A stretch of 64,000 nt of DNA. It comes from a virus. Where the stretch lies: positions 5,323 through 69,322 of IMG/VR virus record IMGVR_UViG_3300029309_000014; one strand, written 5' to 3'. The position numbers and the translations under genes were made by a program. The notes under the pieces were generated by a model that worked only from the letters and a program-made list of their open reading frames with translations, had not been told where the DNA came from and did no database searches. Positions 2,160 to 29,932 of the stretch are shown piece after piece (the stretch's first letter is position 1; every line of letters begins with the position of its first letter).

Positions 2160-2163
2160 TATA

Positions 2164-2852: not shown

Positions 2853-2864
2853 AACATTCTCCTA

Positions 2865-3485: not shown

Positions 3486-3490
3486 GTCGA

Positions 3491-3535: not shown

Positions 3536-3542
3536 TGGAAAA

Positions 3543-3582
3543 ACTATAAACAAAAAAAGGGCGGCTCGCAAGCCGCCCTTTT
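3543..3582 (-). terminator. Intrinsic terminator after MCP with overlapping sigma70-like promoter
   Basis: GGGCGGCT-TGCG-AGCCGCCC followed by T7; TTGCGA-N17-TATAGT. Confidence 0.75.
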
Positions 3583-3594
3583 GAATATTTTATG

Positions 3595-4503: not shown

Positions 4504-4516
4504 ATCTAATTACTCC

Positions 4517-5140
4517 TTATAGACCAGTGGTTGCAGTATGGAATGGGAGGTTCAATTTAACAAGAAGTGTAACACCAGCAGATGCTACATCAATCTCATC
4601 AAATGGATCTTTAATTCCCACAATACGGAAGTTATCCGTAGCCGTAGTTGCACCAGCAGTTGCCACAGAAACTTCACCGATAGAAATACCAGTTGAACCG
4701 TTCTGTGAACCAAAGTTTACCCCTTCTGCATTAGAATGGATCAACGCAGTCGCTGTTGCAATATTAGTGAGTGAAGCATCAGCTTTGACCTCATAAACTT
4801 GGTGGGGGTTATCATAAACAAAAACCCTCGCTTCGCTATTTGATTTCAAAGAAGATGTTCCAGGATAGTTATTATCAAACACTGTTTCACCAGCAGTGTT
4901 TACATACTGACATCCTGCCATAACACCTAGGATAGCAACACTACCACCATCTGCCGCACTTACATCTACAAGTCCATTAGTAAGCGGGATCACCATATCA
5001 CCTTGAAAAATAGATGATGAAGAACCAGCCGTTCCATTTACTTGCACGAGATAAGACGTCAAACCGTTGGAGTTCGCTGCGCCACCTAGAAGATTATGCG
5101 GACGCAAGCCAAATGGGGCATCAAGATTTGTACCAGCCAT
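4517..5140 (-). CDS. Minor capsid/cement-like protein upstream of MCP (copy 1)
   Basis: FGLRP N-terminal motif; syntenic with 63399..64000. Confidence 0.6.
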   Translation of the reverse strand: MAGTNLDAPFGLRPHNLLGGAANSNGLTSYLVQVNGTAGSSSSIFQGDMVIPLTNGLVDVSAADGGSVAILGVMAGCQYVNTAGETVFDNNYPGTSSLKSNSEARVFVYDNPHQVYEVKADASLTNIATATALIHSNAEGVNFGSQNGSTGISIGEVSVATAGATTATDNFRIVGIKDPFDEIDVASAGVTLLVKLNLPFHTATTGL

Positions 5141-5158
5141 TATCTAGTCCTCTTCTTA

Positions 5159-5611
5159 TTACTCGGAGCCTCCTTTGGCTCCGAAGGTTACACGAGACTG
5201 CCTTTCATTATGAATAGGCATCGAACTATGTTGTTCCCTCATAAGGTCATTATCAACAGCAGTCATTTGATCAGCTGTTTTTTCACGATAAAATTTATCA
5301 CGCTCGGTTTTTGACTCAACAGGGAACCTTGCTAAAATGAGACCACCAACTCCAATAACTCCTGCGTGTTTACCATCTTGCACAGTAGGAGCTTCAAAAT
5401 TAGGATACTCATCGGCGCGAACTAATTCAAAGCCTTCGCGTAGGCGAGCTGAAAGGTTTTTATTATCATCATAACCCATAACCGATTCACGGATCCAACG
5501 ATGTATGTAACCCTCAGGGGGTGGTGGGGCGTCTAACGAAGACGGAGGTTGCCAAGGTTTACGACGTGTTTCTTTTTCACGAGTGGCAGTAGTGCGTGGG
5601 GTACGATCCAT
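5159..5611 (-). CDS. Conserved head-module protein (WQPPSSLDAPPPPEGYIHRWIR)
   Basis: 150 aa ORF between scaffold and capsid genes. Confidence 0.7.
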   Translation of the reverse strand: MDRTPRTTATREKETRRKPWQPPSSLDAPPPPEGYIHRWIRESVMGYDDNKNLSARLREGFELVRADEYPNFEAPTVQDGKHAGVIGVGGLILARFPVESKTERDKFYREKTADQMTAVDNDLMREQHSSMPIHNERQSRVTFGAKGGSE

Positions 5612-5622
5612 GATCTATTCCT

Positions 5623-6528
5623 TCACGATTGTAAGCGAGCAAGTTGCTTCGCGTATTGTTCATAAGATACACCTAATTTATCTGCGATTGCAACCTGAGA
5701 AGGTGTTAATTTGATTTTTTTATTTGCAGGCTTCCCTGAAGAGCGTGTTGCACCAGCTACAGGAGCACGAGAGGAAGACCTATTATCTTGTTGAAATTTA
5801 TGAGGAAACTCAGTTCGAATACGCTTATCCAACTCAGTGTAGTATTCATCTGAAGTAGGATCAAAATATTCAGTTTCAACAAGTTGTTTATGTATAGAAA
5901 ATGCTGTCAACGTCATAGGCTCATCCTGACCAAACCAAGTATTGCGTTCAGCCCATGACCGTGCTTTAGGGTCAATCTGATCGGGTGAGGGTGCTTGTGC
6001 CTGTGCTTGTTGAGGAGCTGCTTGAGGAGCTGTTTTACGTTGCTCAAGCTGTTGTTTCGCAACATTTAGTCGTTCCGTCTCAATAGCTAGTTTTGCTATT
6101 GATTTTTGTGCTTCTATTTGTGCATCAACATCACCAACATTGATAGCGTCACTTAGTTGCTTTTTAAGCACATCTTCCTGTGATGTTACCCTTTGATCGT
6201 ACTCATTTATGTACGATTCATCAATTTGAGAACTGCGTTTCTGAAGCTCTTCATTTTGCTTTTGAACAGATTGAGCATACTCAGTAGCTGCTTTTTCACG
6301 ACGCTCAGCTTCCCGCATTTTGTAGGTGAGCTTTTCAATTCGCTTTTTGACTTTGTCGCTGTAACCTTCAAGGTCTTCGTCTGAGGTTTCTTCGCTTGCA
6401 CTGACTTTTTCTGTGCTTTCTTCTTCGGCAGTTTCTTTGTTGTCTTCTTGGTTTTCTTCTGTGTCATTTTCCAATTCCACTTCTACAACGTCTTCTTCGA
6501 CTTTTTTAGCCTCTGGCATAAGATACAC
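5623..6528 (-). CDS. Putative scaffolding protein
   Basis: Acidic N-terminus, long coiled coil, C-terminal LTPSQVAIADKLGV motif; lies upstream of MCP. Confidence 0.65.
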   Translation of the reverse strand: MYLMPEAKKVEEDVVEVELENDTEENQEDNKETAEEESTEKVSASEETSDEDLEGYSDKVKKRIEKLTYKMREAERREKAATEYAQSVQKQNEELQKRSSQIDESYINEYDQRVTSQEDVLKKQLSDAINVGDVDAQIEAQKSIAKLAIETERLNVAKQQLEQRKTAPQAAPQQAQAQAPSPDQIDPKARSWAERNTWFGQDEPMTLTAFSIHKQLVETEYFDPTSDEYYTELDKRIRTEFPHKFQQDNRSSSRAPVAGATRSSGKPANKKIKLTPSQVAIADKLGVSYEQYAKQLARLQS

Positions 6529-6530
6529 TC

Positions 6531-6977
6531 CTATGTGTGGATAATGTCTTCAGGGTTATTGATTGTTGCTAAAATTTCATCATCATTCAGCAATCTAACT
6601 TCACCGCCTTCGATTTTAAAGCGACTACCAGCATACCTACCAAAAATAACCCAATCACCTTCTTTACACCAAGGCTCCCAGTTTTCAGTAGGATCATTAG
6701 GGTTTCCAAATTTAATGGGGTCTTTATAGGCTAGTGGACCAATTTTGACTACATAACCACAAACAGTGGCTAATGCCTCACGGTCTACTGTAGTATCTGG
6801 TATATAAATACCTCCTGCTGTTTTACCTTTGCCACGATAAGGCAAAATAAGAATACGCCAACCAGAGGGTTCTGGAAGTTTTTCTTTAGCAGTTATATTA
6901 TCAGGAGAAGTTTCTTTTTTAGCAGTTTGTTGTGCGGCCTTTGCATACCGCTCTGGAACAAATAGAGTTTTACTCAT
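6531..6977 (-). CDS. groES: Co-chaperonin GroES-like protein
   Basis: PSGWRILILP..KTAGGIYIP..VVKIGP..GDWVIFGRYAG..LLNDDEILATI, Cpn10 signature. Confidence 0.85.
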   Translation of the reverse strand: MSKTLFVPERYAKAAQQTAKKETSPDNITAKEKLPEPSGWRILILPYRGKGKTAGGIYIPDTTVDREALATVCGYVVKIGPLAYKDPIKFGNPNDPTENWEPWCKEGDWVIFGRYAGSRFKIEGGEVRLLNDDEILATINNPEDIIHT

Positions 6978-7161
6978 GTTCTATCCTTTTTAGCAGGAGA
7001 TCTAATTCCTGTTTAACAGTTGCAAGCTCTACGAGTCTAGCTCGTAGTTCCTTGAAAGCGGTTATATCATCTACTGAGCCTTGCAATAATTGCTCAGTAA
7101 TCATATTTTCCCGATCTACGATTATATTACGGAGTTTTTCGTGTATGTAAAGGGTAGACAT
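6970..7161 (-). CDS. Small helical hypothetical protein
   Basis: 63 aa, coupled to groES. Confidence 0.6.
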   Translation of the reverse strand: MSTLYIHEKLRNIIVDRENMITEQLLQGSVDDITAFKELRARLVELATVKQELDLLLKRIEHE

Positions 7162-7305
7162 CTATACTGCACGAACTTTTTTGCGTTTTTTAGCTGTTTT
7201 AGCAGCATTTCTAAAATCTGCCGCCGATGGTGCGCCTTTTTGTCCAGGCTTACGCATCTTTTTACCACTAGCTCTACGCTTTGCAATATTCCTGTATAAA
7301 CTCAT
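7162..7305 (-). CDS. Small basic protein (MSLYRNIAKRRASGKKMRKPGQKGAP), missing from the ORF track
   Basis: Manual translation, 47 aa; ATG overlaps the upstream stop. Confidence 0.65.
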   Translation of the reverse strand: MSLYRNIAKRRASGKKMRKPGQKGAPSAADFRNAAKTAKKRKKVRAV

Positions 7306-7679
7306 TTTTTAAATCCTTTAATACCACGGATTCCGAAACTAGCTCCAATTGAAGCATACATTGCCCATTGAAACCACTCAGGGGTGCGCGATAAAGCATC
7401 AAATCCACGCTCTACAAAAGGTTGCAAAGGTGGGATGAAACACATCCCAATAATAACAATAAATAAAATAGTCCATGCTTCATCTTTCCAGCTATTATCG
7501 CTGGCTTGAGCCATAATTTTTTCCCAACCAGCTTCATGCGTGGCGGCTGTAACCATAACTTGTGCTTCTGCTTCAGCACGAGCTTTAGCTACTGCACCTT
7601 TAGCTTTAGTCTGCTCAACCTTAGATTCCATCCAAGATCCTGCAAGGTTAGCAATAGGACCTATAAGTGCCTGTATCAT
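7302..7679 (-). CDS. Holin-like membrane protein
   Basis: SWKDEAWT motif followed by two hydrophobic helices and a basic C-terminus. Confidence 0.6.
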   Translation of the reverse strand: MIQALIGPIANLAGSWMESKVEQTKAKGAVAKARAEAEAQVMVTAATHEAGWEKIMAQASDNSWKDEAWTILFIVIIGMCFIPPLQPFVERGFDALSRTPEWFQWAMYASIGASFGIRGIKGFKK

Positions 7680-7897
7680 TCTACAATCCTCACAATATAA
7701 TTTGTGCCATCTGAATTCTTTGATACCTCAACAGTTTTATTTTCACAAGCATACCGCACAGAAGTTGATTTTTTATACAAGTTACGTTCAATAGTACGCT
7801 TTGCTTTTAGGCATTTAGCTATTTGCTCAAATGCTGTATGCTCAGCGACATCTCCTCCCATATATAATATCAGAGTAATTGTTTTAATTACTTCCAT
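7676..7897 (-). CDS. Hypothetical protein
   Basis: 73 aa, coupled to neighbours. Confidence 0.6.
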   Translation of the reverse strand: MEVIKTITLILYMGGDVAEHTAFEQIAKCLKAKRTIERNLYKKSTSVRYACENKTVEVSKNSDGTNYIVRIVE

Positions 7898-8282
7898 TAC
7901 GCATCTTTTCTATTTGTTCTTCTATATTAGTTAATCTTTTTTCATAAAAATCTAATGTTAATTTTTGTTGTTGATCATGTGGTGCGCGGCCTTCATCTAT
8001 TTGTTCTTGCAATTTAGCAAGTTGTTCCGACAAATGTTCAATCAGCATAAACTGTTCAGAGTCTGCTGGCAAAGCACCCATTTCTCCTCTAGGCCATTTA
8101 ATTCTAAAATCTGTATTTTGACCAAGATCTGCTTCCATTAGGATAATTTTATTTTCCATAGTATTAAGGCGTTCAATAATCCCAAAATACGCCCATGTTC
8201 CTATAGCCGCCCCTACAACCATAGCCATAAGGTTACGGATCGGCATTGATAATTCAGTATTCTCATTTAGTTTAGTTGCCAC
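7884..8282 (-). CDS. Membrane-anchored coiled-coil protein
   Basis: N-terminal TM segment followed by coiled coil. Confidence 0.65.
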   Translation of the reverse strand: MATKLNENTELSMPIRNLMAMVVGAAIGTWAYFGIIERLNTMENKIILMEADLGQNTDFRIKWPRGEMGALPADSEQFMLIEHLSEQLAKLQEQIDEGRAPHDQQQKLTLDFYEKRLTNIEEQIEKMRNGSN

Positions 8283-8521
8283 TACTCAACACCCATTATC
8301 CGTGACAGACCAAACACCTCCATAAGCATAAACGTAAAGAACAATAATAAAATACCACCAGCGATTAATTTCCCACTGAAATTGGTAGAACCTATTTTTA
8401 TAGCCACAAACTCATTGCCCAATATTCGCAAAACAAGCTCAAAACTATTTTCCCCTACGTTTACAGATACAGGTTTTTTCTTTTCTTCAACCAAAGAGAT
8501 AACCCCCCATAAAAGATACAA
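8282..8521 (-). CDS. Small membrane protein
   Basis: C-terminal TM helix; start uncertain. Confidence 0.55.
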   Translation of the reverse strand: MYLLWGVISLVEEKKKPVSVNVGENSFELVLRILGNEFVAIKIGSTNFSGKLIAGGILLLFFTFMLMEVFGLSRIMGVE

Positions 8522-8548
8522 ACCATATAATCGGTAAAATATGAATCA

Positions 8549-8761
8549 TTAATAAAGCTCCGTATTTTTATTCACCTTAACAGGCTTACAATACGCAGTA
8601 GCTCGGTGTTCTGCTGGAACAGAACTAAGACTACCATAATTTCCATACCTCTTTGTTACTTGCGATGCAAAGTAATTACAATCAACTATAGATCTGAAGT
8701 ACATATCTCTGCTCTGAACTTCACCGCCTAATACCACTACCAGTAAAAAAGCATGGATCAT
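8549..8761 (-). CDS. Small Cys-containing protein with hydrophobic N-terminus
   Basis: 70 aa, two Cys. Confidence 0.55.
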   Translation of the reverse strand: MIHAFLLVVVLGGEVQSRDMYFRSIVDCNYFASQVTKRYGNYGSLSSVPAEHRATAYCKPVKVNKNTELY

Positions 8762-9075
8762 TTCTTTGCCATATATGCCTGTGCGCCAAAGTAAAAACCT
8801 ACAATAGAGGCTTGACTTAAAAATAACATATCACTAAGACTTGCCAGAAACTCTAATCTTTTTTCTGGTATCCACGGTACAAGTGGCAAAAGTGCGAAAC
8901 CAACCATACTAGCAACAGCAACCCAAGCCATTCGTTTTTGGGCATCTGCCTTTTCCTCTCGCAACTCTAACTCAAGCATATCCTTCGCATGAGCTATTTC
9001 CTCATCGGTAACAGTACCATCATTATCTAAATCATACTGTGCAAACCTAGAATTTTCTGATAAGGATTTTGGCAT
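8758..9075 (-). CDS. Membrane protein with EF-hand-like loop (holin-like)
   Basis: DLDNDGTVTDEE loop followed by two TM segments. Confidence 0.6.
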   Translation of the reverse strand: MPKSLSENSRFAQYDLDNDGTVTDEEIAHAKDMLELELREEKADAQKRMAWVAVASMVGFALLPLVPWIPEKRLEFLASLSDMLFLSQASIVGFYFGAQAYMAKK

Positions 9076-9078
9076 CGT

Positions 9079-9309
9079 TTAAAAAACACCTTTAAACTTT
9101 GTTCCTTGCAGAGCTGCTCTACCACCACGCGAAAGAGAGCGTTTTGCAACCTCACCAGTTCTAGGGGAACCCTTACTGCGATTAGCAATACCTCTGCGCT
9201 TAAATTCTTCAAATGACATAGTTTCATCATAATTGCCATCATAAAACATTTCGCGCAGTGCTTGCTCTGGATCAATGGGTATTTCTTTTACATCTTTATC
9301 ATCTGCCAT
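9079..9309 (-). CDS. Small protein ending in SRGGRAALQGTKFKGVF
   Basis: 76 aa ORF in the gene run. Confidence 0.6.
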   Translation of the reverse strand: MADDKDVKEIPIDPEQALREMFYDGNYDETMSFEEFKRRGIANRSKGSPRTGEVAKRSLSRGGRAALQGTKFKGVF

Positions 9310-9318
9310 TAGGGTCTC

Positions 9319-10488
9319 CTAATCTAAAATATCTGTTAATGAAGCGATGCCACTTTTCCCAGCTTTTAAAGCTGCTTCATATGCTTCTTGTAAATTTGTC
9401 GTATCAAACCCAGATGAGCCCCTGTTCCGAGAAGTACCCACAGGGTTGCTAGTATAGGTTCTACCTTTTCGTGCTAATGTCGGTGAAAGCTGTTGCATTT
9501 TATCCCGCATAGCACCGAAATTAAAAAAAGCTAATTGATCAGCAGTAGAAGGACCACCTAAAGCACGGAAAGATGTATCTATGTTTTCTGGTGTAATACG
9601 AGAATCAGGTTCTCTATCTGGAAACCCTACATTTACATCACCAAAAGGTGTAGGCACATCTACAGTACGCGGCAAACCAAAATAATCTAAAGCATCATTT
9701 ACTGACGGTCCTGGAGGAGGAGCTATGTTTAATTCGGGTATAGTGACAGTGAGATCATCTAAATTAAATGCTGTTTGTTGTGTTCCTGGAGGCATACCAG
9801 AAGTGGTGGGGGCAGTATAATTATCCTGCATAAACTGTCCTGCTTTAGTTTGGGCTCTGCCAAGAGGAGCATCATCAGGGCGACCTGTATATTCACCAAT
9901 AATACTATCTTTACCCACTACTGTACTACCAGAAGCTATCCCTTGATTTTTTGTTGCAGGATTTGTTGTAGAACCTAGCCCCATCCTGCCAGCAATAGTA
10001 TTTGCTAATCCAACAATACCTTTCACAGTATCAGTTCCAGGAACAACTGCCGATAATATACCTAATGGTGTATTTCGTCCAGGAACAACCATATTCTCTA
10101 TATTTTGACCAAAACTTTTTTTAGTATCGTAGCCAAACATTCCAGGAATATCTGTTGGCTCTCTATACCCTAATTGATCAGCTACATAATTTTGTGTAGA
10201 AGTAGCATATGGATTCATACCTTGAGACAATGCATCTAAAGCCGCATTATACGCATCCGCTCCTGGACCAGACATTCTACCAGTAGCTTCATACCCAACA
10301 TTGCCACCACTTTCACTAAAAGGGCTGTCTTGTCTACCAATGCCAGAGCCACCGCCATCGCCACCACCACCACTAAAAGTATCGGCCGTTAAACTACTCT
10401 GTCCTTCACCCATACCTCCGCCAAAAGAGCCACCGCCATAGCCGACGTTGCCTCCACTTTCACTATCGGGACCATCTTGTCTACCCAT
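9319..10488 (-). CDS. Gly-rich low-complexity protein, possibly an internal virion protein
   Basis: Duplicated GRQD..SESGGNVGY motif; C-terminal GIASL; directly downstream of portal. Confidence 0.6.
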   Translation of the reverse strand: MGRQDGPDSESGGNVGYGGGSFGGGMGEGQSSLTADTFSGGGGDGGGSGIGRQDSPFSESGGNVGYEATGRMSGPGADAYNAALDALSQGMNPYATSTQNYVADQLGYREPTDIPGMFGYDTKKSFGQNIENMVVPGRNTPLGILSAVVPGTDTVKGIVGLANTIAGRMGLGSTTNPATKNQGIASGSTVVGKDSIIGEYTGRPDDAPLGRAQTKAGQFMQDNYTAPTTSGMPPGTQQTAFNLDDLTVTIPELNIAPPPGPSVNDALDYFGLPRTVDVPTPFGDVNVGFPDREPDSRITPENIDTSFRALGGPSTADQLAFFNFGAMRDKMQQLSPTLARKGRTYTSNPVGTSRNRGSSGFDTTNLQEAYEAALKAGKSGIASLTDILD

Positions 10489-12890
10489 TACCCACCCCCT
10501 CTATTAGCTGTGCGTTGTAGGGCTATCTGTGCTCGCATCGCAGCTATATCTTCTGTGCTGCCAATACGCTCACGTTGGATGGCGGCTTGCTCATTTGCTT
10601 TTTGTTTATTAAACTCCAGCTCCATTTGCTCTTGGCGAGCATCCTGCATTTGATCTTGTTGGCGTAGCATAAGCTCTTGCTGTTTTAATTCAACTAATGG
10701 GTCTTGTTTCTGCATACCCATTAATTGTGCTTCTTCTTGTAGATATGCTGTAATTAAATCCGACTCTATTTCATCTAAACGGCTTTGCATCATTTCAGGT
10801 GGTATTTGTTGACCCTGTTGTTGCATCTGCTGCATCTCTTGCTGAGCAATCATTTGTGCTTTCATAGATAAATGCTCAAATATATGTGTTTGCAAAATCT
10901 GCATTGCTGCAGGATTACCTTTTACAATAGCACTATTGAAATAAGCTAAATGTGATTTTATATGTGCATCATGGTTTTGTTCTGGGAAGGCTTTTAATTG
11001 TTGTCTACCAGCCATAGCTAATTGCAATTGACCATTTTCAGTAATGGCATTTGTGGGCTTTGGCTGTTGTGGGGGAGTAAGTATTTGCTCAATATTATCC
11101 ACACCCAAAGCACTATACATCCTGCGGTATGCTTCATAAGTATTATGCAACTGTGGGCTTGCTTGTGCGAGTTTTAATTGCTCACTCGCCAAACTCACAC
11201 GTTGTGACATACTGAAAATATTAGGGTTAGCTACTGGTACAATATCTACACGACCATCAAAATCCTGTGCTTTCATACCTTGTTGGTTGCCAGTAACATT
11301 GTACAAATAATCACTGCCATCTGTACCGATTATTTCAGCAAGTAACTTAAACTCTTGCTTCATAGCATTGTACAAGCGTTTATGCACCGCAGACATAATA
11401 CGGCTACCACGCTCCATCAAGGCTACTGTCGTACCAACAGGCATTTCAGTATTTTGGATATTGCCTGTGCCAATATCTGTAGTACCTACAAATTTTTGTG
11501 CTGCCTGAACTACAAAACCAAGCAGCTGGAACAGAGTCGCGCTCGGCTCTTTGTAGGGCAAAGGTAAGAGCGAGCCGCGTAACTCTGTTCCAACAACATC
11601 TACATCGCGCCATTCTCCGGGCTGAAGTGGCTGGTCATCATCACGGATACGTAACCCTCGTGCTTTAAATCCTGCTGGCATATTTGACAAAGTGCCAGCA
11701 TCTATCAGCTGTCTAAGGTTAGCTGTAGCTGTACGCGATAGATTACCAAGTAAATGAATCAAACCATTACCGTAAAAACCCAATCCTGGAGTAAACATAT
11801 AATGAATAAAAAACTGTTTTTTACGCTTAAACGTATCATTATCAGCATAATTACGGTAAATAGATAAAACTTGACCAGAATCTGCAGAAACAGTAACAAT
11901 ATATGGCAGTTTTATACCTGTCGGCTCACCATCTTCATCTTTATCAGCAAAATCTTCTATATCTAGGTAACAATGGCACTCATAAAGCACTAATTCTTCA
12001 TAAGAACCTGATTTTTCCAAACCAGAAAGCTCTTCTTTAGCCTCTTTTAACTCATCATACTCACCTTCTCCAGGATATACCTCTAAATCACGGTAAAAAC
12101 CATTTACTTGTAACTTGCGTAACTCATTTTCAGTCATACGAATGATATGTGTTACACGTTCTGTGCTTGCTAAATCAGTAGCATTGTATGGAACTAGCAA
12201 ATCTTCGGCTTGTATAAACTTACTTACCTGTCTGCCTAGTTGTGGATCAGGGTATACCTTCTTAAATGCACTACCGCATAGCCCTAAGTAGTATAACATC
12301 TGGTCAAATTCAGAATCATACTCTTCCATAACATGCAGAATCTGGTAATTCATCTCTGTTTTAATACGTTCTGCCTGTTTCTCTAATTCTGGTGATGTAT
12401 CACCCAAGACTTGTGTGCGGACAGGACCACTCGGAGGCAATAATTCTTTATAGGCTTGGCTTTGAAACTGGCTAACAGCTTCATTCAACATAGGATGTAT
12501 TACACCAGTAGCACCCTGAAAAGGTTCTGTACGATTATCGTACTTTACACCCAATAAATCTAAACCTTTTGTATATGTGCTTAACCATTCATTACGAGAA
12601 GCTTTATCCTCATCTACTTTTTCAAGCACCATACTAGATATACCTGTAAGTTCATCATCATCGATAAACTCAGCTAGGTTATCCATAAATTTTGCTTCAC
12701 CTTTATCCTCCGCATCAGGTTCGGCAAACTCTACTGAACCATCTTCAAGTGTGGACATCTCCATACCATCAAAAGAAGGTTCAGGGGCAGCGGTCGGTAG
12801 TTCTATTTCTAATTCATCACTAGGCAGTGGTTGACCAACTAAAGTAAATTCACGCTCAACATTATTATAAGGGCTAGGTTTTTTCGCCAC
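10488..12890 (-). CDS. Portal protein
   Basis: 800 aa after TerL; LCGSAFKKVY, GFYGNGLIHL, LRQLIDAGTLSN, PVGTTVAL motifs; Q-rich coiled-coil tail of P22-like portals. Confidence 0.88.
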   Translation of the reverse strand: MAKKPSPYNNVEREFTLVGQPLPSDELEIELPTAAPEPSFDGMEMSTLEDGSVEFAEPDAEDKGEAKFMDNLAEFIDDDELTGISSMVLEKVDEDKASRNEWLSTYTKGLDLLGVKYDNRTEPFQGATGVIHPMLNEAVSQFQSQAYKELLPPSGPVRTQVLGDTSPELEKQAERIKTEMNYQILHVMEEYDSEFDQMLYYLGLCGSAFKKVYPDPQLGRQVSKFIQAEDLLVPYNATDLASTERVTHIIRMTENELRKLQVNGFYRDLEVYPGEGEYDELKEAKEELSGLEKSGSYEELVLYECHCYLDIEDFADKDEDGEPTGIKLPYIVTVSADSGQVLSIYRNYADNDTFKRKKQFFIHYMFTPGLGFYGNGLIHLLGNLSRTATANLRQLIDAGTLSNMPAGFKARGLRIRDDDQPLQPGEWRDVDVVGTELRGSLLPLPYKEPSATLFQLLGFVVQAAQKFVGTTDIGTGNIQNTEMPVGTTVALMERGSRIMSAVHKRLYNAMKQEFKLLAEIIGTDGSDYLYNVTGNQQGMKAQDFDGRVDIVPVANPNIFSMSQRVSLASEQLKLAQASPQLHNTYEAYRRMYSALGVDNIEQILTPPQQPKPTNAITENGQLQLAMAGRQQLKAFPEQNHDAHIKSHLAYFNSAIVKGNPAAMQILQTHIFEHLSMKAQMIAQQEMQQMQQQGQQIPPEMMQSRLDEIESDLITAYLQEEAQLMGMQKQDPLVELKQQELMLRQQDQMQDARQEQMELEFNKQKANEQAAIQRERIGSTEDIAAMRAQIALQRTANRGGG

Positions 12891-12985
12891 TTGACTTACC
12901 TCCCTGTATCACACGCAATTTGGGACGGTCAATAACAGCTACCTCATCCAATACTTTTTCAATATATTGTTTTAATTCTTCTATT

Positions 12986-14458
12986 CTAACCGTAATAGGA
13001 ATTTGTTCTTGGCGGTGCATCGACATAATCGTTATAATCCTCTGGGTGTTGTATAAACCCACCTTCGCGGAAACGTCGGAGAGCCTGTGTTACTGTATCA
13101 ACAAAATCATCATTTTCGCCAACAGGAAATGAAGCACACTCTTCTATCACTTCCTCTGCCCATCTAGTATCCGGAGCCCATACTAACCCACTTTCTAGGA
13201 TTGGCGCAATGGAGTTTACACGAGTATATTTATCATTACCTCTACTCGGGGAATAATTCTGCACTGGAATACCCATACTACGCAATTCTTGCGTTAATGG
13301 CATACCACTGGCTTTTGCCTCAATAATCACACATTCTGGTTCCCAATAATCATATTCTTCTTTTGCAATACGTTTTAATTCAGGAAAATCCCATCGGCCA
13401 CGTCGCGCATCTACCAAAACAATATTAGGTGCTTCACCCTCAACTGGGTAAAATACACCCCATGTTGTTATTGCACTATAATCAGCATTCTCTTTTTTAC
13501 TGTATGCTGTATCATAACTCTGCATCACATAACTTAATTTAGGAATATCTTCTTTTTCCCACTTATTCCACCACTCACGCTTTAATATAGCTGTTGTTTC
13601 ACTCGTCGGGTTTTGCTGCCATTGTGCTTCCCATTTACCAACTGATAATGAAGCCTTCACCTTTAATAATTCATCTTTTTTCCAAAACTCCGGCCATAAT
13701 ACCTTTTCATCATCTAATAATGCTGGAAACTCTATTACCTCCCACTGGTCTGCTAATACATCCCGCGCCTGTTGCTTTAATAATTTGCCAGTCAAATCTA
13801 TCTCTGACCAACGCGTCATCACAATTACAATCGCTCCTCCAGGCTGCAATCTTTGCCGTGGACCAGATGTATACCACTCATAGGCATTCTCTAATGCTGC
13901 TGGGGATAAAGCATCTTGTTCAGAGTGTGGGTCATCAATAATCATTAAATCCGCACCACGGCCTGTAATCGCACCCCCTACACCAGCCGCAAAATATTCA
14001 CCGCCAGCATGGGTCTCCCATCGGCCAGCCGCACTACTATCCTGTCGCAATTTAACATCTGGAAAGACTAGAGAGTAATCGTTACTATTCATAAGGTTAC
14101 GCACCTTTCGGCCAAACCTTACTGCTAACTCACCTGTATGCGTTGCCTGTATTATCTTTAATTTTGGATTTAATCCCATTAAATAACTCGGCAATAAATA
14201 ACTTGCATACTCTGACTTTGTATGTCTTGGCGGCATATTCACAATTAACCGCTTAATACTACCATCAGCTAAACCATTAAACTTCTGCGCCATTATCTTA
14301 TGGTGCTTCCCCTCAATAAACTCAGGCCATACTGTTTTGCAGTAGGCCATAAAATCCTTCCTCGCGTGATCACTCGAGATATGCTGTTTCTGCTTCTCAA
14401 GCAACCGCGCATACTGCTTTAATACTTCTTCGGGGATAGTTACCGGAACATCACTCAT
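12986..14458 (-). CDS. terL: Terminase large subunit
   Basis: NMPPRHTKS Walker A-like, GADLMIIDDP Walker B, VMTRW, SYDTA nuclease Asp, NDDFVD. Confidence 0.93.
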   Translation of the reverse strand: MSDVPVTIPEEVLKQYARLLEKQKQHISSDHARKDFMAYCKTVWPEFIEGKHHKIMAQKFNGLADGSIKRLIVNMPPRHTKSEYASYLLPSYLMGLNPKLKIIQATHTGELAVRFGRKVRNLMNSNDYSLVFPDVKLRQDSSAAGRWETHAGGEYFAAGVGGAITGRGADLMIIDDPHSEQDALSPAALENAYEWYTSGPRQRLQPGGAIVIVMTRWSEIDLTGKLLKQQARDVLADQWEVIEFPALLDDEKVLWPEFWKKDELLKVKASLSVGKWEAQWQQNPTSETTAILKREWWNKWEKEDIPKLSYVMQSYDTAYSKKENADYSAITTWGVFYPVEGEAPNIVLVDARRGRWDFPELKRIAKEEYDYWEPECVIIEAKASGMPLTQELRSMGIPVQNYSPSRGNDKYTRVNSIAPILESGLVWAPDTRWAEEVIEECASFPVGENDDFVDTVTQALRRFREGGFIQHPEDYNDYVDAPPRTNSYYG

Positions 14459-14652
14459 ATTATTCTAATAATATAAAAATTTTCTCGGCGCAATGATCTC
14501 GGATCAATGTTTCAAAAAAGGGGGTATGGGTACGCTGTATAATTTTCAGAGTGGTAACGATTTGGACAGAACCGTGTACTGCGCTGGTGCTTGTACACCA
14601 CTCGTCGCGCTAGGGGGGTTGCCCTGTGGCAAAAGTGCAACAGTGTTGCAAA

Positions 14653-14681
14653 CCAGCCGCCAAGTACCTTTTGGCGGCTGG
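14653..14681 (-). terminator. Hairpin terminator after the 176-aa gene
   Basis: CCAGCCGCCAA-N7-TTGGCGGCTGG perfect 11-bp stem, followed by TTT on the minus strand. Confidence 0.65.
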
Positions 14682-14691
14682 CTGCTAGGGG

Positions 14692-15222
14692 TTAGCTGCT
14701 AACCACCAGTTTGCACAGTGGGTTGCCCCAGCCTACGCTGCTAGGGCTGCTGCCGCCAGCCATAGCCTTTAACACTGGGTTTTGGTTAAGGCTGCTGGTA
14801 ACGCTGCTGCCGCTATTAGCAGCAATAGCATTTACCATTGCAAGCGGCACAGCGGCTGGCACTTTAGTAGGCACTGTGGTTTTTAACCAGCCAAAGCTAG
14901 TAATAAACTTAGGCTTTGGTGCGGTATAGCCTTGTGCGCTAGGCTGCCAATACTTAGCTGGCAAGCCACCATTAACCATAACCCAAAGCATTTGCCCAAA
15001 GTGGCCTATTGCCTTGCCGTTGGCTGGCTGCATAGCACGCCAAAAGTTAGCACCGCCCATAAGCGCGTTGGCTTGCACGGCGGCTGGTGTTAGCTGCACG
15101 TTAATATTGCCAATGCCATTAGCAGTAATAAACGCCTTAATAGCAAGGCTGCAATAAACGCCTTGGCTACCCAAATTTGCGGCCGTAAAGGCTGCCGCTG
15201 CCTGTGTTGTTGTGTTACCCAT
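14692..15222 (-). CDS. Asp/Glu-free 176-aa protein, paralog of 17593..18051
   Basis: Long ORF with upstream AAAAGGGG RBS-like element and a terminator; collinear similarity to the 152-aa protein. Confidence 0.8.
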   Translation of the reverse strand: MGNTTTQAAAAFTAANLGSQGVYCSLAIKAFITANGIGNINVQLTPAAVQANALMGGANFWRAMQPANGKAIGHFGQMLWVMVNGGLPAKYWQPSAQGYTAPKPKFITSFGWLKTTVPTKVPAAVPLAMVNAIAANSGSSVTSSLNQNPVLKAMAGGSSPSSVGWGNPLCKLVVSS

Positions 15223-15356
15223 TGGTAAACCCCTTTTGTAAAAAGCAAAGCACCATTGCCTTGCCCTATTGTTATGGCATAGGTGGTATATGTTTGTAAA
15301 CCCCTAAAAGCACATTAATGCAAATAAAGTTATTATTGCACCAAGTATTGCCGCCA

Positions 15357-15539
15357 CTAACATTTATGCCGCCATGCGCTAATGTAACCATGCGCGGCTA
15401 ACACCAGCCCCATAACAAACATAAACACGTTTATATAATGGTGCATTGGCGGCAAGTTAAACGTGCCTAAACTAGCAAACATTAATGTAACACCAGCCAC
15501 CATATTTAACGTGCAAAAAAACATATATACATAAACCAT
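15357..15539 (-). CDS. Asp/Glu-free 60-aa two-TM membrane protein
   Basis: ATG 15539 preceded by AAAAAGGGG; MVYVYMFFCTLNMVAGVTLMFASLG..VFMFVMGLVLAAHGYISAW. Confidence 0.6.
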   Translation of the reverse strand: MVYVYMFFCTLNMVAGVTLMFASLGTFNLPPMHHYINVFMFVMGLVLAAHGYISAWRHKC

Positions 15540-15699
15540 AATAAAACCCCTTTTTGTTTGTTGCGTTATGTAAATACTTAAAAGCAAAAACACGCTCAAG
15601 CAAGCGGCAATGTGCTCAAAAAATATCGCGGCCTGATCTCTAAAGAGACCGTATATGATAGATGCGATCACGTCCAGGATCGGATGGAAAGATAGATCA

Positions 15700-15722
15700 A
15701 TCCATCCATCCATCCATCCATC
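15700..15722. repeat. (ATCC)5 microsatellite within a GATC-rich patch
   Basis: atccatccatccatccatccatc; four GATC within 15635-15698. Confidence 0.85.
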
Positions 15723-15737
15723 GGCTACAAAAAGGTT

Positions 15738-15763
15738 GGTAGGGCAACCGAAGTCGCCCTACC
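15738..15763 (-). terminator. Intrinsic terminator
   Basis: GGTAGGGC..CGAA..GCCCTACC stem-loop followed by AACCTTTTT on the minus strand. Confidence 0.7.
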
Positions 15764-15770
15764 GTTGGGG

Positions 15771-16136
15771 TTAACTGATATCGTGCCAATGCCAACGGTA
15801 CTCGTTTTTTGGCTCGTCAAAAGTTGGCTCCTCAAGGTTGGGTTTAGCCTCAAGTTTTTGCCAGCGTGGTTGGCTACCGTCAATGTACTTAAACCAAACC
15901 TCATCTTTACCGTCGGCAGTAAAGACATCCTTACCATGGTAAAAGATCTCGCAGTCTTGGTTGCTCCAACTTGGGCAACCGTCGGCGTCAAAAAGGTCGT
16001 CGTCTTTTTCATAATTTATGTACACGTTTTGATAAAAACGCAAACCTTGTATAAGGCTTAGGATGTCAACGGCATTTACCCGTCGTACATGTATAGCTGT
16101 TGTAAAGCTATTATGGTGGTCAACTATATAAAGCAT
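15771..16136 (-). CDS. Hypothetical protein (TC-poor coding strand)
   Basis: 121 aa; GAGG RBS upstream and terminator downstream. Confidence 0.65.
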   Translation of the reverse strand: MLYIVDHHNSFTTAIHVRRVNAVDILSLIQGLRFYQNVYINYEKDDDLFDADGCPSWSNQDCEIFYHGKDVFTADGKDEVWFKYIDGSQPRWQKLEAKPNLEEPTFDEPKNEYRWHWHDIS

Positions 16137-16308
16137 TGTACTTACCTCGTTTTGTAGCTGTTACCAAAATTAGTAACAATTAAAAGGTAGCACACAGCAC
16201 ATCGCTGAGTGTCCTACTTGGTCGCTGTGACGTCTTAAGATGTCCAGCTCTGATGTCTTTTGAGGTCTGTTTTGTTTGAGTATATATGATGGTGTATATA
16301 CATATGAA

Positions 16309-16770
16309 TCATTCGTCATCTTTCATCGTCCATCTATCCATGTCCATCGGGTCGTCGCTCGTCATCAATCGTCCGAGGACTCTTGCCCATCCATCACGAT
16401 CCATCGGCCATTCCATTCGATCATCGTACACTGGCTCATCATCCATCAATCTCTTGCTCAGGTTACGACCATCCAAAAATAATAGCTGACTAGACGAAAG
16501 ATGATGGACCAAGTTCCAAACGCATCCACCAACAGAGGTTCTTGAGGTCTGCCATGCTATTTGATGAGGACGCCATTGTGGGAACTTCTTGTCAGACTTT
16601 GTCGTAAGAACCTTTAGCTCAACCCAAAAGTCCTTGCCATTCAAGCAACCGTTGACGTCAGGTACTCCTGGACTCGCCCACGACTCCATCCTAGTCCAAT
16701 GCACCCCGAGGGGCTTGGTTCCATCACGTAGGGCTTTCCAAAGTTTAGATTCAGGCTTCTTTGTCGCCAT
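16309..16770 (-). CDS. PD-(D/E)XK nuclease, Holliday-junction-resolvase/VRR-NUC-like
   Basis: ESKLW..TRMES..GVPDVNG..FWVELK..RPHQIAW motifs. Confidence 0.75.
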   Translation of the reverse strand: MATKKPESKLWKALRDGTKPLGVHWTRMESWASPGVPDVNGCLNGKDFWVELKVLTTKSDKKFPQWRPHQIAWQTSRTSVGGCVWNLVHHLSSSQLLFLDGRNLSKRLMDDEPVYDDRMEWPMDRDGWARVLGRLMTSDDPMDMDRWTMKDDE

Positions 16771-17305
16771 CAGGTAGAACCTCCAAGTTGTCCATTTCTA
16801 TGACAGGGCTGGTTGCTTCTACCAATGCTGGATACTCTTGCTGTATCCGCTTAATTTCAGTGAGCACTTCTTCTTTACTCATTTGGTCTATTTTACCATG
16901 CAGTATTTCTTTACGATCAATGTAAAGACCTGCCGCTGAACCTCTGGCTTTTTCAGCAGATACGGCGGCGGCATAGTTTCCATTTTGCAATGCTTGGTCA
17001 CGCAGTTGTGCGAGCTTTTGTACATGACTTTCAAAAGTAACCTCGTACTTATGCTGTAGCTCTTTCTTGATTTCATAAACCCTTTGCAAGACTTGTGGGT
17101 AGTTACGACCATTTAGCATATGACTCGCAATAGAGTGTGCGTTGGATTCAGCATACCCTGCCCTGAGTGCCGCTTCCGTTTGCGTAACCTCTTCTGTAGC
17201 ATAAATCATTGCAAATTTTTCCTGCATGGGTGTCAGCCCTTTTTCCACCCGAGGGTTTGCAACAATGTCCAAACTATTTTTGTGAGTGACTTTTGCTTTT
17301 GCCAT
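16751..17305 (-). CDS. terS: Terminase small subunit
   Basis: LTPMQEKFAMIY..TQTEAALRAGY HTH; AAVSAEKARG..GLYIDRKE. Confidence 0.85.
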   Translation of the reverse strand: MAKAKVTHKNSLDIVANPRVEKGLTPMQEKFAMIYATEEVTQTEAALRAGYAESNAHSIASHMLNGRNYPQVLQRVYEIKKELQHKYEVTFESHVQKLAQLRDQALQNGNYAAAVSAEKARGSAAGLYIDRKEILHGKIDQMSKEEVLTEIKRIQQEYPALVEATSPVIEMDNLEVLPDGDKEA

Positions 17306-17592
17306 GAGATCATACTACTTTTCTATAATAGGAACGTAAATAGAAATCGAGTCATTACAAAAAACCAACGGCTCAAACTCGCGTAGCTGTCTAAAGTTTA
17401 GACTACAATATATGAATTAGAGGTATAATCCTTTGATATGATTGTATAGCCATATATCGTATATTTGAATATCGGATAGAGTACAATACCCCATATTTCA
17501 TTTTTGATACTATATATAAAAGTAGCACAATATCAAAGAGAGCCATGATCCGTGGACCATGACCCTCTACTTGCCTTTCGTATAATTTGTGA

Positions 17593-22915: not shown

Positions 22916-23443
22916 TCAAACGCTTAAATTATAATGGATTAGCACTTTATTCACTGGTTCAAAATCAGCTAAATCAGAAAACTTTTTATAGAGATAGTTG
23001 ATGCCTGTGTGCATTATCACTTTCATCTGGTCACTTTGATTTGAATGGCGATGGGAATAGAGTACGAGTTCAAGCATATCTGCCATTTTCAATCTATTCT
23101 TTTCTTCTGGAGTGAGAACAAATATCAATCCAAGGTCATCCATCACTTTCTTTTCAGCATCTTCAAATGCTTTATGTACCTCAGGAAAAGACCATTTAGC
23201 TGTGGCTGGTATATCACCAAGAATGAGTTCAGGTACATCATGGTACAATGAAGCCATAATCAATTGTTTTGTACTATCAGGCCAAAGCTGGTCAATCAAT
23301 ATACTTACTGCGTATGAATGTGCTCCCACTGTCTGTCTCTCTGCTTGCATGGCAACTGTGTGGAAGCGCAATAAGAACTGAGCATCCCACGCTGTTGTCA
23401 AAGTTTTAATGTTCGGTATTGTCTTGCATTGGCGTTGCGCCAT
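22916..23443 (-). CDS. HD-domain 5'-deoxynucleotidase (YfbR-like)
   Basis: RFH..QTVGAHS..LYHDVPE..GDIP..KMADMLE. Confidence 0.82.
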   Translation of the reverse strand: MAQRQCKTIPNIKTLTTAWDAQFLLRFHTVAMQAERQTVGAHSYAVSILIDQLWPDSTKQLIMASLYHDVPELILGDIPATAKWSFPEVHKAFEDAEKKVMDDLGLIFVLTPEEKNRLKMADMLELVLYSHRHSNQSDQMKVIMHTGINYLYKKFSDLADFEPVNKVLIHYNLSV

Positions 23444-25467: not shown

Positions 25468-25858
25468 TACCTCGCATTCGCACTTCTGCTTCTACAAGAA
25501 ATAAATACCGACGTAAGTCACGGATATCATCAAGGATACCTTCCTCACGCATATCATCAAAGGCAGCTTTAAATACATCATAATTATATTCTGTAACTTG
25601 TTTTTCAAGCCTATCCCATTTACGAGCCAGCATCATAAAAGCACCAACACCGCCACGCTGCTTCCAGCTATCACCGTAAGACTGCTCTGAATTATGTAAC
25701 CCTTCTACATCTTGATTAGCTAACCCAACGATATTATTAACAATAGGGCTATAATCATCAGGGGTAATATCACCGTTTTTTGCCATATTTGTATACTCCT
25801 CCCAATCTAATTCCTGCATACGCCTTTTCATGTATTGTTCGTGGCTTTCTCTTGCCAT
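25445..25858 (-). CDS. Nucleotide-modification-associated all-alpha protein (Nmad1/DUF1599, MazG-like)
   Basis: SYGDSWKQRG..RKWDRL..ILDDIRDLRRY. Confidence 0.65.
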   Translation of the reverse strand: MARESHEQYMKRRMQELDWEEYTNMAKNGDITPDDYSPIVNNIVGLANQDVEGLHNSEQSYGDSWKQRGGVGAFMMLARKWDRLEKQVTEYNYDVFKAAFDDMREEGILDDIRDLRRYLFLVEAEVRMRGNGKRKAG

Positions 25859-26856
25859 TTATCTCTCCTACGTTCTAACCATTCCCAAGTAGCTAAATGC
25901 CAATCATCGGGTTTTATATCTGCACAATGGTCAAAAGCTAAAGCTAATTCTTTAGCTTTCCATGCTTGCCATACTCGGTGCATAGGTTGTGCCAAATCGG
26001 AGAAACAGGAATTTATATATGGTCTTGGCCTTTCAGTATCTTCCATAAACCATTCTAACTCTTCATCAAATGATTCTATATTATTTACAAGAGCATCTGG
26101 CCTAATCATACGCACATTGTATGATTCATAATCAGGGTTCATACCCTCTAGCTTTTTTAATACTTCAGTATAAGCATGAAGGTTATTACTAAACTGTGTA
26201 TAGATACCAACACTCGCGCCAATGCGAGAGGCTATATACTCTTGAAGAATGGACATATGGACAGCATTAGCTCCCAATGCACCCCAGATCATATCATTAC
26301 TACGGTTACATACTGTCATATCCAATATATTATCACGCACATTAAAATAGATATGAGTATTACAGGGATGGTCTTTACAGCTATTACTCATCCGTAAATC
26401 ACCCTCAGCATCCCACATTGCTAGAACTGCTCGTCTATCATTTGTATGTGTCATCAACCTGTGGATGATTACATCAATCTGATCACGATGAAAGTAATTA
26501 CGCCAACGGTATCCGTATGCTCCCTGTAATATTTTACCATCATCACTATACTCACCCATCCGTGCATTATAGCGTTGTATCCACTCTAAATCATTACGCC
26601 CTGCTAACATCCACAGGCTTTCCATAAAGTGAAATATTGGGTTTGCATCACGTTCGGGGTAAAACAGTACACGCTCGCGTGGGTTATTGTAGACAATAGC
26701 ACATGGTTCACGGAACTCAATTGCTTTACCATTACGAGTTTCTACTTCTACACCATTAGCTTCTAATGCTTGCTTCACAACAAACAATGCTTCGCTTACA
26801 TTTCCTACGGTGAAAGTATGCACCCCTCGCATGGGTGCTTTGCCATATAATGCCAT
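25828..26856 (-). CDS. Thymidylate-synthase-fold enzyme, probable dUMP hydroxymethylase
   Basis: Catalytic PC (KDHPCNTH); RSNDMIWGALGAN with Asn at the dUMP-specificity position; NLHAY; context of hypermodification genes. Confidence 0.8.
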   Translation of the reverse strand: MALYGKAPMRGVHTFTVGNVSEALFVVKQALEANGVEVETRNGKAIEFREPCAIVYNNPRERVLFYPERDANPIFHFMESLWMLAGRNDLEWIQRYNARMGEYSDDGKILQGAYGYRWRNYFHRDQIDVIIHRLMTHTNDRRAVLAMWDAEGDLRMSNSCKDHPCNTHIYFNVRDNILDMTVCNRSNDMIWGALGANAVHMSILQEYIASRIGASVGIYTQFSNNLHAYTEVLKKLEGMNPDYESYNVRMIRPDALVNNIESFDEELEWFMEDTERPRPYINSCFSDLAQPMHRVWQAWKAKELALAFDHCADIKPDDWHLATWEWLERRRDKWQEKATNNT

Positions 26857-29035: not shown

Positions 29036-29932
29036 TTACGCCACCTCCCCATTAACAGCCTCCAGCATTGAACCTTGTAATCCATTATACTTACTACGAG
29101 GAGTGCCTTGACCAAGACGTACACGCTCATACTTATCCCACTCGCAAAGGCTGTGTTCAATACAACGCATATCCACAGCCAGAGTCGGGATGTGATTGCC
29201 AAGATAACGGTGCGAATCTTCGAGTAAATCGTGCATCTCCCTATTGCTTTGATAAGCACCTAACGCTTTTGTAAGAGGTCTATCATGGATTCTATTGAGG
29301 CCTCGTTTTGCTCCTGGACCTGCATTTGCCCAACTAAAACGGTCTTTTGCCTTGTCCAATACAGGTGTGTAGTTGAGGTCGGTAACCACCTCGTATGACA
29401 TAAAACCTCCTCCTCCCCACCCTTTATACTTAGCCATCGCTTCATGTACCGCTTGGAGCGACTGCGTTTCGGTGGCAATCTGCGCCAACGCTTCTTTGTT
29501 CTCCCATATTGGCGAAAGGAAATAGTCAACTACTACCTCTGATTTTGGTAACTTGAGTCCTTGGTTAGTGATTATATAAGCACCAGTAAATGTCCGTAAA
29601 CCCTGCTCAAGCCGAGCCTTTATCAAGTCTTTAGTAAAAGTAGGGTTAAAATCGTGCGACCAACCATGTGCATCAGCAAACTCACTAGTCCCAACCATAC
29701 GAAACATACAGCAATTAAATATAATTTCACCATGTGGACGGTTACTATTTGGCTTAGTAAAATTCTGTCTCATCCACACAGTAACCCTATCATTCTCACG
29801 GAAAGGATTAGTAAACTTATAATCGCGTAATATAGGGTCATCAGTCCAAGGGGCTGGTTGCCCCTTGGCTCGTTTTTGGTAAATAGCGTGACGCTCGTTT
29901 ATCCAGTAGCAGAACCTTTCTATGTTCTCCAT
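29036..29932 (-). CDS. aGPT-Pplase clade 1 thymidine-hypermodification protein (HhH-glycosylase-like fold)
   Basis: ERHAIY..PWTDDPILRDYKFTNPFRENDR..FTGAY..GFMSYEVVTDL..GPGAKRGL..EHSLCEWDKY. Confidence 0.82.
   Translation of the reverse strand: MENIERFCYWINERHAIYQKRAKGQPAPWTDDPILRDYKFTNPFRENDRVTVWMRQNFTKPNSNRPHGEIIFNCCMFRMVGTSEFADAHGWSHDFNPTFTKDLIKARLEQGLRTFTGAYIITNQGLKLPKSEVVVDYFLSPIWENKEALAQIATETQSLQAVHEAMAKYKGWGGGGFMSYEVVTDLNYTPVLDKAKDRFSWANAGPGAKRGLNRIHDRPLTKALGAYQSNREMHDLLEDSHRYLGNHIPTLAVDMRCIEHSLCEWDKYERVRLGQGTPRSKYNGLQGSMLEAVNGEVA

Follow-up and report, generated by a model that had tools for sequence, protein, structure and literature searches.

Two genes in a stretch of DNA from an uncultured marine phage are preceded by Shine-Dalgarno (SD) sites in which the usual GGAG core reads GGGG. 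The stretch, called the window, comprises bases 5323-69322 of the 69,322-bp IMG/VR virus record IMGVR_UViG_3300029309_000014, which is labelled linear and without end repeats. Very probably, these are real SD sites that have been rewritten to avoid the dinucleotide GA. Both lie in a 991-bp island, located between the terS and terL genes, in which neither GA nor TC occurs on either strand. On balance, we lean towards a fuller reading, in which the sites serve two real genes of a GA/TC-free cassette, and the avoided word corresponds to the sequence context of a thymidine hypermodification made by the phage itself. The features of the cassette and its immediate flank are, in window coordinates:

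14606..15596, both strands: GA/TC-free island of 991 bp, with zero GA and zero TC
14610..14625, minus strand: C-tract motif CAACCCCCCTAG, at the distal edge of the island
14648..14685, minus strand: terminator-like GC-rich hairpin, which starts 7 nt past the stop of the 176-aa gene and has 15 pairs, followed only by TTTGC
14692..15222, minus strand: 176-aa gene of an orphan family, free of Asp and Glu, ending in TAA
15223..15240, minus strand: predicted ribosome-binding site (RBS) of the 176-aa gene, TACAAAAGGGG (15240-15230), and a 7-nt spacer (15229-15223); ATG at 15222
15271..15300, minus strand: putative sigma-70-like promoter, consisting of TTTACA (15300-15295), an 18-nt spacer and TG-C-CATAAC (15279-15271)
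15357..15539, minus strand: 60-aa gene, encoding a small hydrophobic two-helix protein, ending in TAG
15540..15557, minus strand: predicted RBS of the 60-aa gene, ACAAAAAGGGG (15557-15547), and a 7-nt spacer; ATG at 15539
15597..15727, minus strand: segment dense in GA/TC that borders the island on its upstream side and contains four GATC and a (GGAT)5 tandem repeat

The island is the sole stretch of its kind in the whole 69,322-bp record. The 64-kb window contains 6450 GA/TC dinucleotides, its second-longest GA/TC-free stretch measures 74 bp, and a scan of the window revealed nothing comparable for any other dinucleotide class. Approximately 100 GA/TC are expected in the island and none is present; genome-wide, the observed/expected ratio is 0.82-0.91. 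Edges are sharp and fall at the ends of the predicted transcription unit, and the G+C content of the island is higher, not lower. Asp and Glu codons, along with every synonymous codon bearing GA or TC, are excluded. The TAA and TAG stops of the two island open reading frames (ORFs) are automatic, since TGA contains GA.

The island spans one putative promoter-to-terminator unit. It starts a median of 146 nt before the gene of the 176-aa family (the family gene) and ends a median of 85 nt past its stop, just beyond the hairpin. Since these limits track the promoter-side start of the gene and the hairpin, the island coincides with one predicted transcription unit. In the lineage of the window, the island is enlarged to include the small upstream gene of 60 aa.

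A first-pass annotation of the window had located the two RBSs 7 nt before their ATGs, the TTTACA and TG-n-CATAAC elements and the stop codons, and all of these positions are correct. The AGAAAGG-type signal that it had described as usual for early and replication genes is also real: (A/G)TAGAAAGG(A/C)G is found 5-6 nt ahead of the ATGs at 18069, 20018, 26874, 30570 and 31742, and near-variants occur at 21064 (AAAGAAAGGAG) and 32030 (TAGAAGGGG). Within a GA-free stretch, signals without GA are trivial by construction. The non-trivial part is that the sites look functional and are conserved. Among the 24 minus-strand ATGs of the island, the two best pairings with the anti-SD (-7.8 kcal/mol each, scored against the consensus anti-SD decamer, which may differ from the 16S sequence of the host) belong to the starts of the 176-aa and 60-aa ORFs. 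The same ATGs, at 15222 and 15539, are the first ATGs of ORFs that are conserved among relatives. AAAGGGG keeps six anti-SD pairs, one of which is G-U, and its -7.8 kcal/mol is typical of the genes of this genome. The earlier suggestion that the consensus was sacrificed is consequently too strong, as the A-to-G change retains the pair as G-U and binding stays at the genome-typical level.

Sites of the GGGG type are rare outside the island (about 5%), and the possibility that they are equally common elsewhere does not hold. In the genome of the window, a GA-containing SD core (GGAG, GAGG or AGGA) precedes 55 of the 75 gene starts outside the island, and GGGG alone precedes two. Over six genomes, 246 of 390 gene starts are of the GA type, 82 have a GA-free SD-like site (GGGG-only in 19) and 62 have none; for each gene, the start with the strongest SD was chosen out of the first four in-frame candidates, a heuristic biased toward finding an SD, equally for both classes. 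Separately, many early and middle genes are preceded by an extended conserved word, (C)GTAGAAAGGAG or ATAGAAAGGAG, both in the window (18069, 20018, 21064, 26874, 30570, 31742 and 32030) and in related genomes (near 5990 in loci L191, L124, L182 and L166). This word amounts to more than an SD alone, and part of it may be a processing or regulatory element.

Orthologs and paralogs located inside and outside islands provide natural controls. A TerL-based scan of IMG/VR yielded 80 related loci; below, L-numbers denote related loci, W the window and G-numbers the genomes compared, G000 being that of the window. The family gene was analysed in 48 related loci, in 46 of which an SD-like purine block precedes the start; the block is unclear in the other two. 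The RBS is of the AAAGGGG type in 24 loci, of the AAGGT, AAGGTG, AAGGGT or AGGT type in 19, and GGAG in only three. In two of the three (L033 and L037), the RBS falls on the edge of the island or just beyond it, and the third (L031) has a relaxed island.

The 60-aa gene, orthologs of which were found in 17 other loci, varies in a similar way. Inside the island, i.e., in W and L005-L007 only, the gene contains no GA/TC and its RBS reads AAAGGG(G). Outside the island (L002, L003, L010, L012, L013, L016-L018, L022, L036 and L056), orthologs contain 7-13 GA/TC, and their RBS is AAAGGAG, AAGGGAG or GGGGAG. Intermediate genes, with 4-6 GA/TC and an AAAGGGT site, are found in L008, L009 and L011.

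A sister clade, identified by a locus scan with a single Asp/Glu-containing family member (protein P0048), encodes two versions of the island protein, tandem paralogs that are 50-60% identical, between a VRR-NUC-like gene and terL (L191, L148, L186, L164, L124, L182, L166 and L184, at about 6000-7400). Paralog A is normal in composition (10-13 GA/TC per 100 bp and 11-14 Asp+Glu), and the canonical signal precedes it: GTAGAAAGGAG and GTAGAAAGGAC at four loci each, AAAGAAAGGAG at one. Paralog B contains no GA/TC in L191 (RBS GTAAAGGGG), is nearly GA/TC-free in L148 and L164 (RBS TAGAAAGGGT) and in L186 (RBS AAGAAAGGC), and of normal composition in L166 (RBS TAGAAAGGAG). The tandem paralogs thus feature an RBS series leading from CGTAGAAAGGAG, kept by paralog A, through TAGAAAGGGT to GTAAAGGGG, found in the in-island paralog B, which matches the course of substitution put forward in the first-pass annotation. 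As judged from these comparisons, the SD has G or T in place of its A (GGAG to GGGG, GGGT or GGTG) exactly where the site falls inside an island, and the RBS substitutions of the window recur in related genomes in both ortholog and paralog comparisons.

The constraint acts on DNA rather than on protein, as relaxed orthologs carry Asp and Glu together with GA/TC-bearing synonymous codons, and the family includes clusters rich in the two residues. Both strands are clean, which points to a process acting on double-stranded DNA. For the same reason, the target of an RNA-level nuclease was ruled out as the avoided word. An assembly artefact was also ruled out, as the island is present in dozens of independent contigs.

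The 176-aa gene was taken as a real protein gene on the basis of family conservation, the ratio of non-synonymous to synonymous substitution rates (dN/dS) and a confident structural model; these features indicate a translated orphan gene under purifying selection. Its BLASTP-connected family takes in 46 of the 51 distinct island ORFs of at least 100 aa found in the 80 TerL loci, and dN/dS ranges from 0.06 to 0.22 in nine orthologous pairs. For instance, 52 substitutions, of which about 39 are synonymous and 13 non-synonymous, separate the copies of W and L005, and neither copy has GA or TC. The AlphaFold2 model, obtained from a 51-row alignment, has a pLDDT of 85.9 and a pTM of 0.83. A search of 5.8 billion proteins yielded 17 close clusters, and a family profile search of 1.8 billion representatives yielded 109 clusters at E ≤0.001, of which 46 are without Asp/Glu and 29 have at least 5% Asp/Glu. 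Foldseek comparisons of the fold with the PDB and BFVD gave only matches with E above 4, the best Z in the wide VIA-align search was 3.9, and the best score in the protein atlas (0.81) was at chance level. A tblastn comparison of the Asp/Glu-containing family member P0047 with 50,697 phage records gave no match, and the island region had no megablast match in the phage collection.

The cassette also carries putative transcription signals. W, L005 and L007 share an invariant TTTACA-N17/18-TGnCATAA(C/A) amid variable spacer and flanking sequences, and the same block is present in L008. The final base of the -10 hexamer is C or A, not the usual T. Assignment of this block as a promoter is no more than plausible. 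The first-pass annotation had proposed that both the RBS and the promoter were changed to avoid GA; the ortholog and paralog controls bear this out for the RBS, and for the promoter it is only plausible. A strong GC-rich hairpin lies within a few nt of the family-gene stop in all 38 listed loci. A clear T-run of 6 or more follows in at least 15 of these and is weak in the window. The stem sequence varies among W, L005 and L007, and pairing is kept. Four RNA-library runs compared with 12900-17400 gave few assembled contigs (61-199 nt), which match the flanks only and are uninformative on transcription; one assembled contig, guessed to be RNA, reached 15512-15681, and none covered the cassette. 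That the island genes are expressed, as had been proposed, is supported indirectly, by the breadth of the family, the low dN/dS, the confident structure and the hairpin conserved in 38 loci.

Islands are widespread among relatives. A GA/TC-free stretch of at least 500 bp is found directly upstream of terL in 53 of the 80 TerL loci, a set that includes eight with less than 400 bp of upstream sequence, too short for a judgement. Stretches free of GAT/ATC for at least 600 bp are found in 58 of the 80 terL-linked relatives. Each long island-bearing genome has a single such outlier stretch, and its position between terS and terL is constant in all loci examined. Nearly all of the GA/TC that have returned in G003 (with L047 and L053) are CTC or GTC; this locus still has a stretch of 1053 bp without ATC/GAT and one of 594 bp without (A/T)TC. 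Similarly, ATC/GAT-free stretches of 712-813 bp are found in G012 and G016-G018. Judging from these stretches, the avoided word has narrowed in some lineages to (A/T)TC, above all to ATC. Such shifts between lineages resemble enzyme specificity.

The flanks of the island are also distinctive. The 100-bp bin upstream of it contains 15-23 GA/TC in many loci, about twice the genome-average density, and relatives feature differing, lineage-specific short tandem repeats and GATC clusters at this position. C6-7 tracts similar to CAACCCCCCTAG recur just past the terminator in many relatives.

The window encodes a set of enzymes expected of a phage with hypermodified thymidine, as identified by PHROG and Pfam scans:

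22916-23443: HD phosphohydrolase of the hypermodification kit
25828..26856, minus strand: thymidylate-synthase homolog, likely a dUMP hydroxymethylase (phrog_5131, 1.3e-104; PF00303, 2.8e-20)
26940-27992: radical-SAM/SPASM protein of the hypermodification kit
27943-28728: TAGT-like protein of the hypermodification kit
29036..29932, minus strand: 5-hydroxymethyldeoxyuridine (5-hmdU) DNA kinase (HMUDK_hel; PF18723, E 1.6e-50; 172 bits in the genome search)

HMUDK is present in G000, in 8/8 records of relatives covering that part of the genome and in 10/10 records of the sister set. No HMUDK match was found in the records of two shorter relatives, which are 21% and 61% complete. No island was seen outside HMUDK-bearing genomes. 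In four complete relatives in which a search with G000 as positive control detected no HMUDK, there is no dinucleotide-free stretch and no family homolog in the 13 kb around terL.

According to published work, thymidine hypermodification is dinucleotide-specific, occurring at TG/TC in M6, ViI and PhiW-14, where this is ascribed to kinase preference (PMC6449724). TG sites are described as nearly fully occupied by the hypermodification in SH-Ab 15599 (PMC13458397), and conversion of 5-hydroxymethyluracil (5-hmU) is stated to occur 'in sequence-specific contexts' (PMC8989533; PMC5889632). Among uncultured HTVC023P-type phages, hypermodification genes are reported only in clades V, VIII and IX (PMC9599517); the words 'island' and 'dinucleotide' do not occur in that paper. 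Two further reports describe host END nucleases that attack phages with hypermodified thymine early in infection, phage anti-END proteins, and defence glycosylases that act on thymidine-modified phages (PMC12191111; bioRxiv 10.1101/2025.10.29.685425). The literature searched, supplementary files aside, contained no account of a region lacking GA/TC or modification, whether in these phages or in others. A TG-specific system could have no coding equivalent of the island, since ATG, GTG and TTG all contain TG. A TC-specific variant, in turn, would make the island the one unit without a modified base.

In the reading that we favour, the two motifs would be working SD sites of two real genes, both located in a self-contained cassette (promoter, RBS, gene and terminator) free of GA and TC on both DNA strands. 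The avoided word would be the sequence context of the post-replicative thymidine hypermodification of the phage; a 5-hmdU DNA kinase would mark 5-hmU by dinucleotide context, the gene at 29036..29932 encoding the candidate enzyme. The cassette would then be the only transcription unit of the packaged genome without hypermodified bases. As to its purpose, we can only speculate. The products might be made from incoming DNA at a time when hypermodified DNA is poorly read. Alternatively, expression might survive the attack of modification-dependent host nucleases or glycosylases on hypermodified DNA; having no modified bases and its own promoter and terminator, the cassette would stay intact and readable under attack. 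The presence of a normal and a motif-free copy in one genome fits a protein needed under two conditions. It is a tentative and rather unlikely extension that a clade of abundant marine podoviruses keeps a 'stealth' unit, recoded as far as its SD site, its promoter and the removal of every Asp and Glu codon, so as to offer no target to the TC-context modification of the phage; its orphan protein, which some genomes would encode as one normal and one stealth copy, would be produced from incoming DNA under such attack and would inhibit modification-dependent defences.

Several observations weigh against the favoured reading. Of 17 long HMUDK-positive genomes, five (G001, G002, G011, G014 and G015) have no island, and these are scattered on the TerL and HMUDK trees, each of which requires 4 changes. 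No gene tracks the island by presence or absence, either in the comparison of G000 genes with 8 genomes or in the clustering of 1,347 ORFs from 18 genomes; the best candidates for an island determinant were clade markers or island ORFs. The first 50 kb of the HMUDK-positive phage PhiJL001 (63.6 kb in all) contain no dinucleotide-free stretch, and published kinases favour TG over TC. The putative promoter was not called by a consensus promoter scan and lacks the usual last T of the -10 element. The 176-aa protein has no recognisable function, with no match in PHROGs or Pfam. As the island-less HMUDK-positive genomes are scattered, no gene tracks the island and PhiJL001 lacks the stretch, the constraint looks conditional; we infer that a pressure from outside, such as host defence, is a better match for this than an intrinsic need.

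In an alternative that we consider unlikely, the word missing from the island would be the target of some other enzyme acting on double-stranded DNA at TC/GA, and the link to hypermodification would be coincidental. Such an enzyme, encoded by either the host or the phage, could be a TC-preferring cytosine deaminase, a nuclease or nickase recognising a short motif, or a methyltransferase. TC-preferring DNA deaminases and a TC-preferring phage nuclease have been described. The constraint is strand-symmetric and acts at the dinucleotide level, the island is conditional, being missing in 5/17 HMUDK-positive genomes, its losses do not follow the HMUDK tree, and the avoided word varies by lineage (TC, WTC, ATC) in an enzyme-like manner. 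However, PHROG and Pfam scans recognised no deaminase, no nuclease specific for such a motif and no full-length methyltransferase in the window. Moreover, the restriction of the island to HMUDK-bearing genomes (0/4 relatives without HMUDK) would be left to coincidence, and the alternative gives no clear reason for protecting just one unit of 0.6-1.2 kb.

It is improbable that the island serves packaging or ejection, in which case an unmodified stretch beside a hypermodified GATC/repeat array would mark the terminase start or the leading genome end, and the genes would merely tolerate the constraint. Short repeat arrays flank the ends of T7, and the pac site of P1 requires methylated GATC. The fixed terS-terL position in all loci examined, the high GA/TC density, GATC clusters and lineage-specific tandem repeats just upstream, and the many contigs that break in or beside the island are all in line with this view. 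In contrast, the limits of the island follow the putative promoter and terminator of the gene, shifting to include or exclude the small upstream gene, and the island is repeatedly lost, although every member should need packaging. The sequencing runs compared with the region consist of assembled contigs, which are incapable of showing molecule ends.

A mutational footprint in a fast-evolving gene, for instance through high mutation at modified TC sites, with the RBS variants due to drift, might be suspected from W and L008, which share 96% identity in TerL and 34.5% in the island protein, but is extremely unlikely given a dN/dS of 0.06-0.22, the absence of all of about 100 expected GA/TC between edges that are sharp at the ends of the transcription unit, a genome-wide observed/expected ratio of merely 0.82-0.91, an island G+C content that is higher, not lower, and the retained strength of SD pairing. 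Deaminase hypermutation was ruled out by the same G+C content and low dN/dS.

Known systems resemble the island in part. As in SD sites with G-U wobble, the island RBSs are purine-rich, located 7 nt before ATG, complementary to the 3' end of 16S rRNA and of genome-typical energy. Unlike ordinary wobble variants, they feature a systematic replacement of the A in GGAG, which would be imposed by a ban on GA in DNA rather than by the needs of translation. Restriction-site and motif avoidance are known in phages, and the leading region of T7, which contains the early anti-restriction gene 0.3/ocr, is poor in sites. The T7 ocr region, like the island, is a short stretch with a host-type promoter (putative in the island) and an early-looking small gene, without targets of a DNA-acting enzyme. 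In contrast, the island avoids a dinucleotide, at the cost of two amino acids, over one whole transcription unit only.

The thymidylate-synthase homolog, HMUDK and accessory enzymes of the window recall the hypermodification systems of M6, ViI, PhiW-14 and SH-Ab 15599. These were reported to act at TG or at TG and TC, and unlike in the island-bearing phages, no modification-free cassette was found for them in the literature searched. Like morons, the island has a promoter-like element, its own RBS, a terminator-like hairpin and variable content, and is inserted between terS and terL. In contrast to morons, it is found in a lytic-type podovirus context, and its defining trait is compositional (freedom from a motif), which is foreign to the moron concept. 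Finally, mRNAs lacking ACA escape MazF. Similarly, the island gene seems to have been recoded to remove a short enzyme target entirely, with the protein presumably still made. The MazF target is a trinucleotide in single-stranded RNA, whereas the island is clean on both DNA strands.

PHROG and Pfam scans identify the window as a podovirus-like phage, nearly all genes of which are carried on the minus strand. Genes of the packaging and structural region include the following:

10488-12890: portal
12986-14458: terL
16751-17305: terS

Capsid, internal-virion and ejection proteins, DNA polymerase A, a primase and a helicase were also identified. Judged by TerL (about 58-63% identity), its closest relatives in culture are the Pelagibacter phages HTVC027P and HTVC023P, phage 023Pt_psg01 and phage DSL-LC04. 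The first and last ~10 kb of the record repeat each other at only 65-80% identity (window 1-4503 vs 53637-63387; record 1-9825 vs 58959-68709), and the repeat includes second copies of the major head gene and neighbouring genes. Probably, the contig overruns one genome length (about 59 kb) into a related strain, i.e., this is a chimeric wrap-around assembly and not a true duplication. The sole strand switch in the window occurs at 36901-37066, where the helicase gene (37066-38598, plus strand) diverges from the replication module; the AT-rich gap between the two may hold early promoters or an origin. The VRR-NUC-like gene, encoding a 153-aa protein with an acidic, repetitive tail rich in Asp and Met, contains many CATC/ATCC-type repeats at its 3' end, which continue in the DNA beyond (16309-16470). 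Among the 80 related contigs, 8 start inside the island (L014, L021, L024, L065, L067, L070, L075 and L077), and L020 and L073 start within ~150 nt upstream of it. Such starts could reflect either strain-level variation that breaks assemblies or a physical genome end.

Restriction-site avoidance is well known. In these phages, a dinucleotide is purged from a complete predicted transcription unit, bending both the translation signal and the amino-acid alphabet. A dinucleotide-free transcription unit in marine phages predicted to hypermodify their DNA is apparently an undescribed feature, as judged from the literature searched. The island may provide a sequence-only read-out of the probable hypermodification context (TC, narrowing to ATC in some lineages) in uncultured ocean phages, and points to a conserved orphan protein that apparently requires unmodified DNA as its coding template. 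The natural before-and-after pairs, such as GGAG vs GGGG RBSs and normal vs Asp/Glu-free paralogs, are usable for studying the limits of recoding. If the anti-defence reading were true, the cassette would add a new phage move to the arms race that pits DNA modification against modification-dependent immunity.

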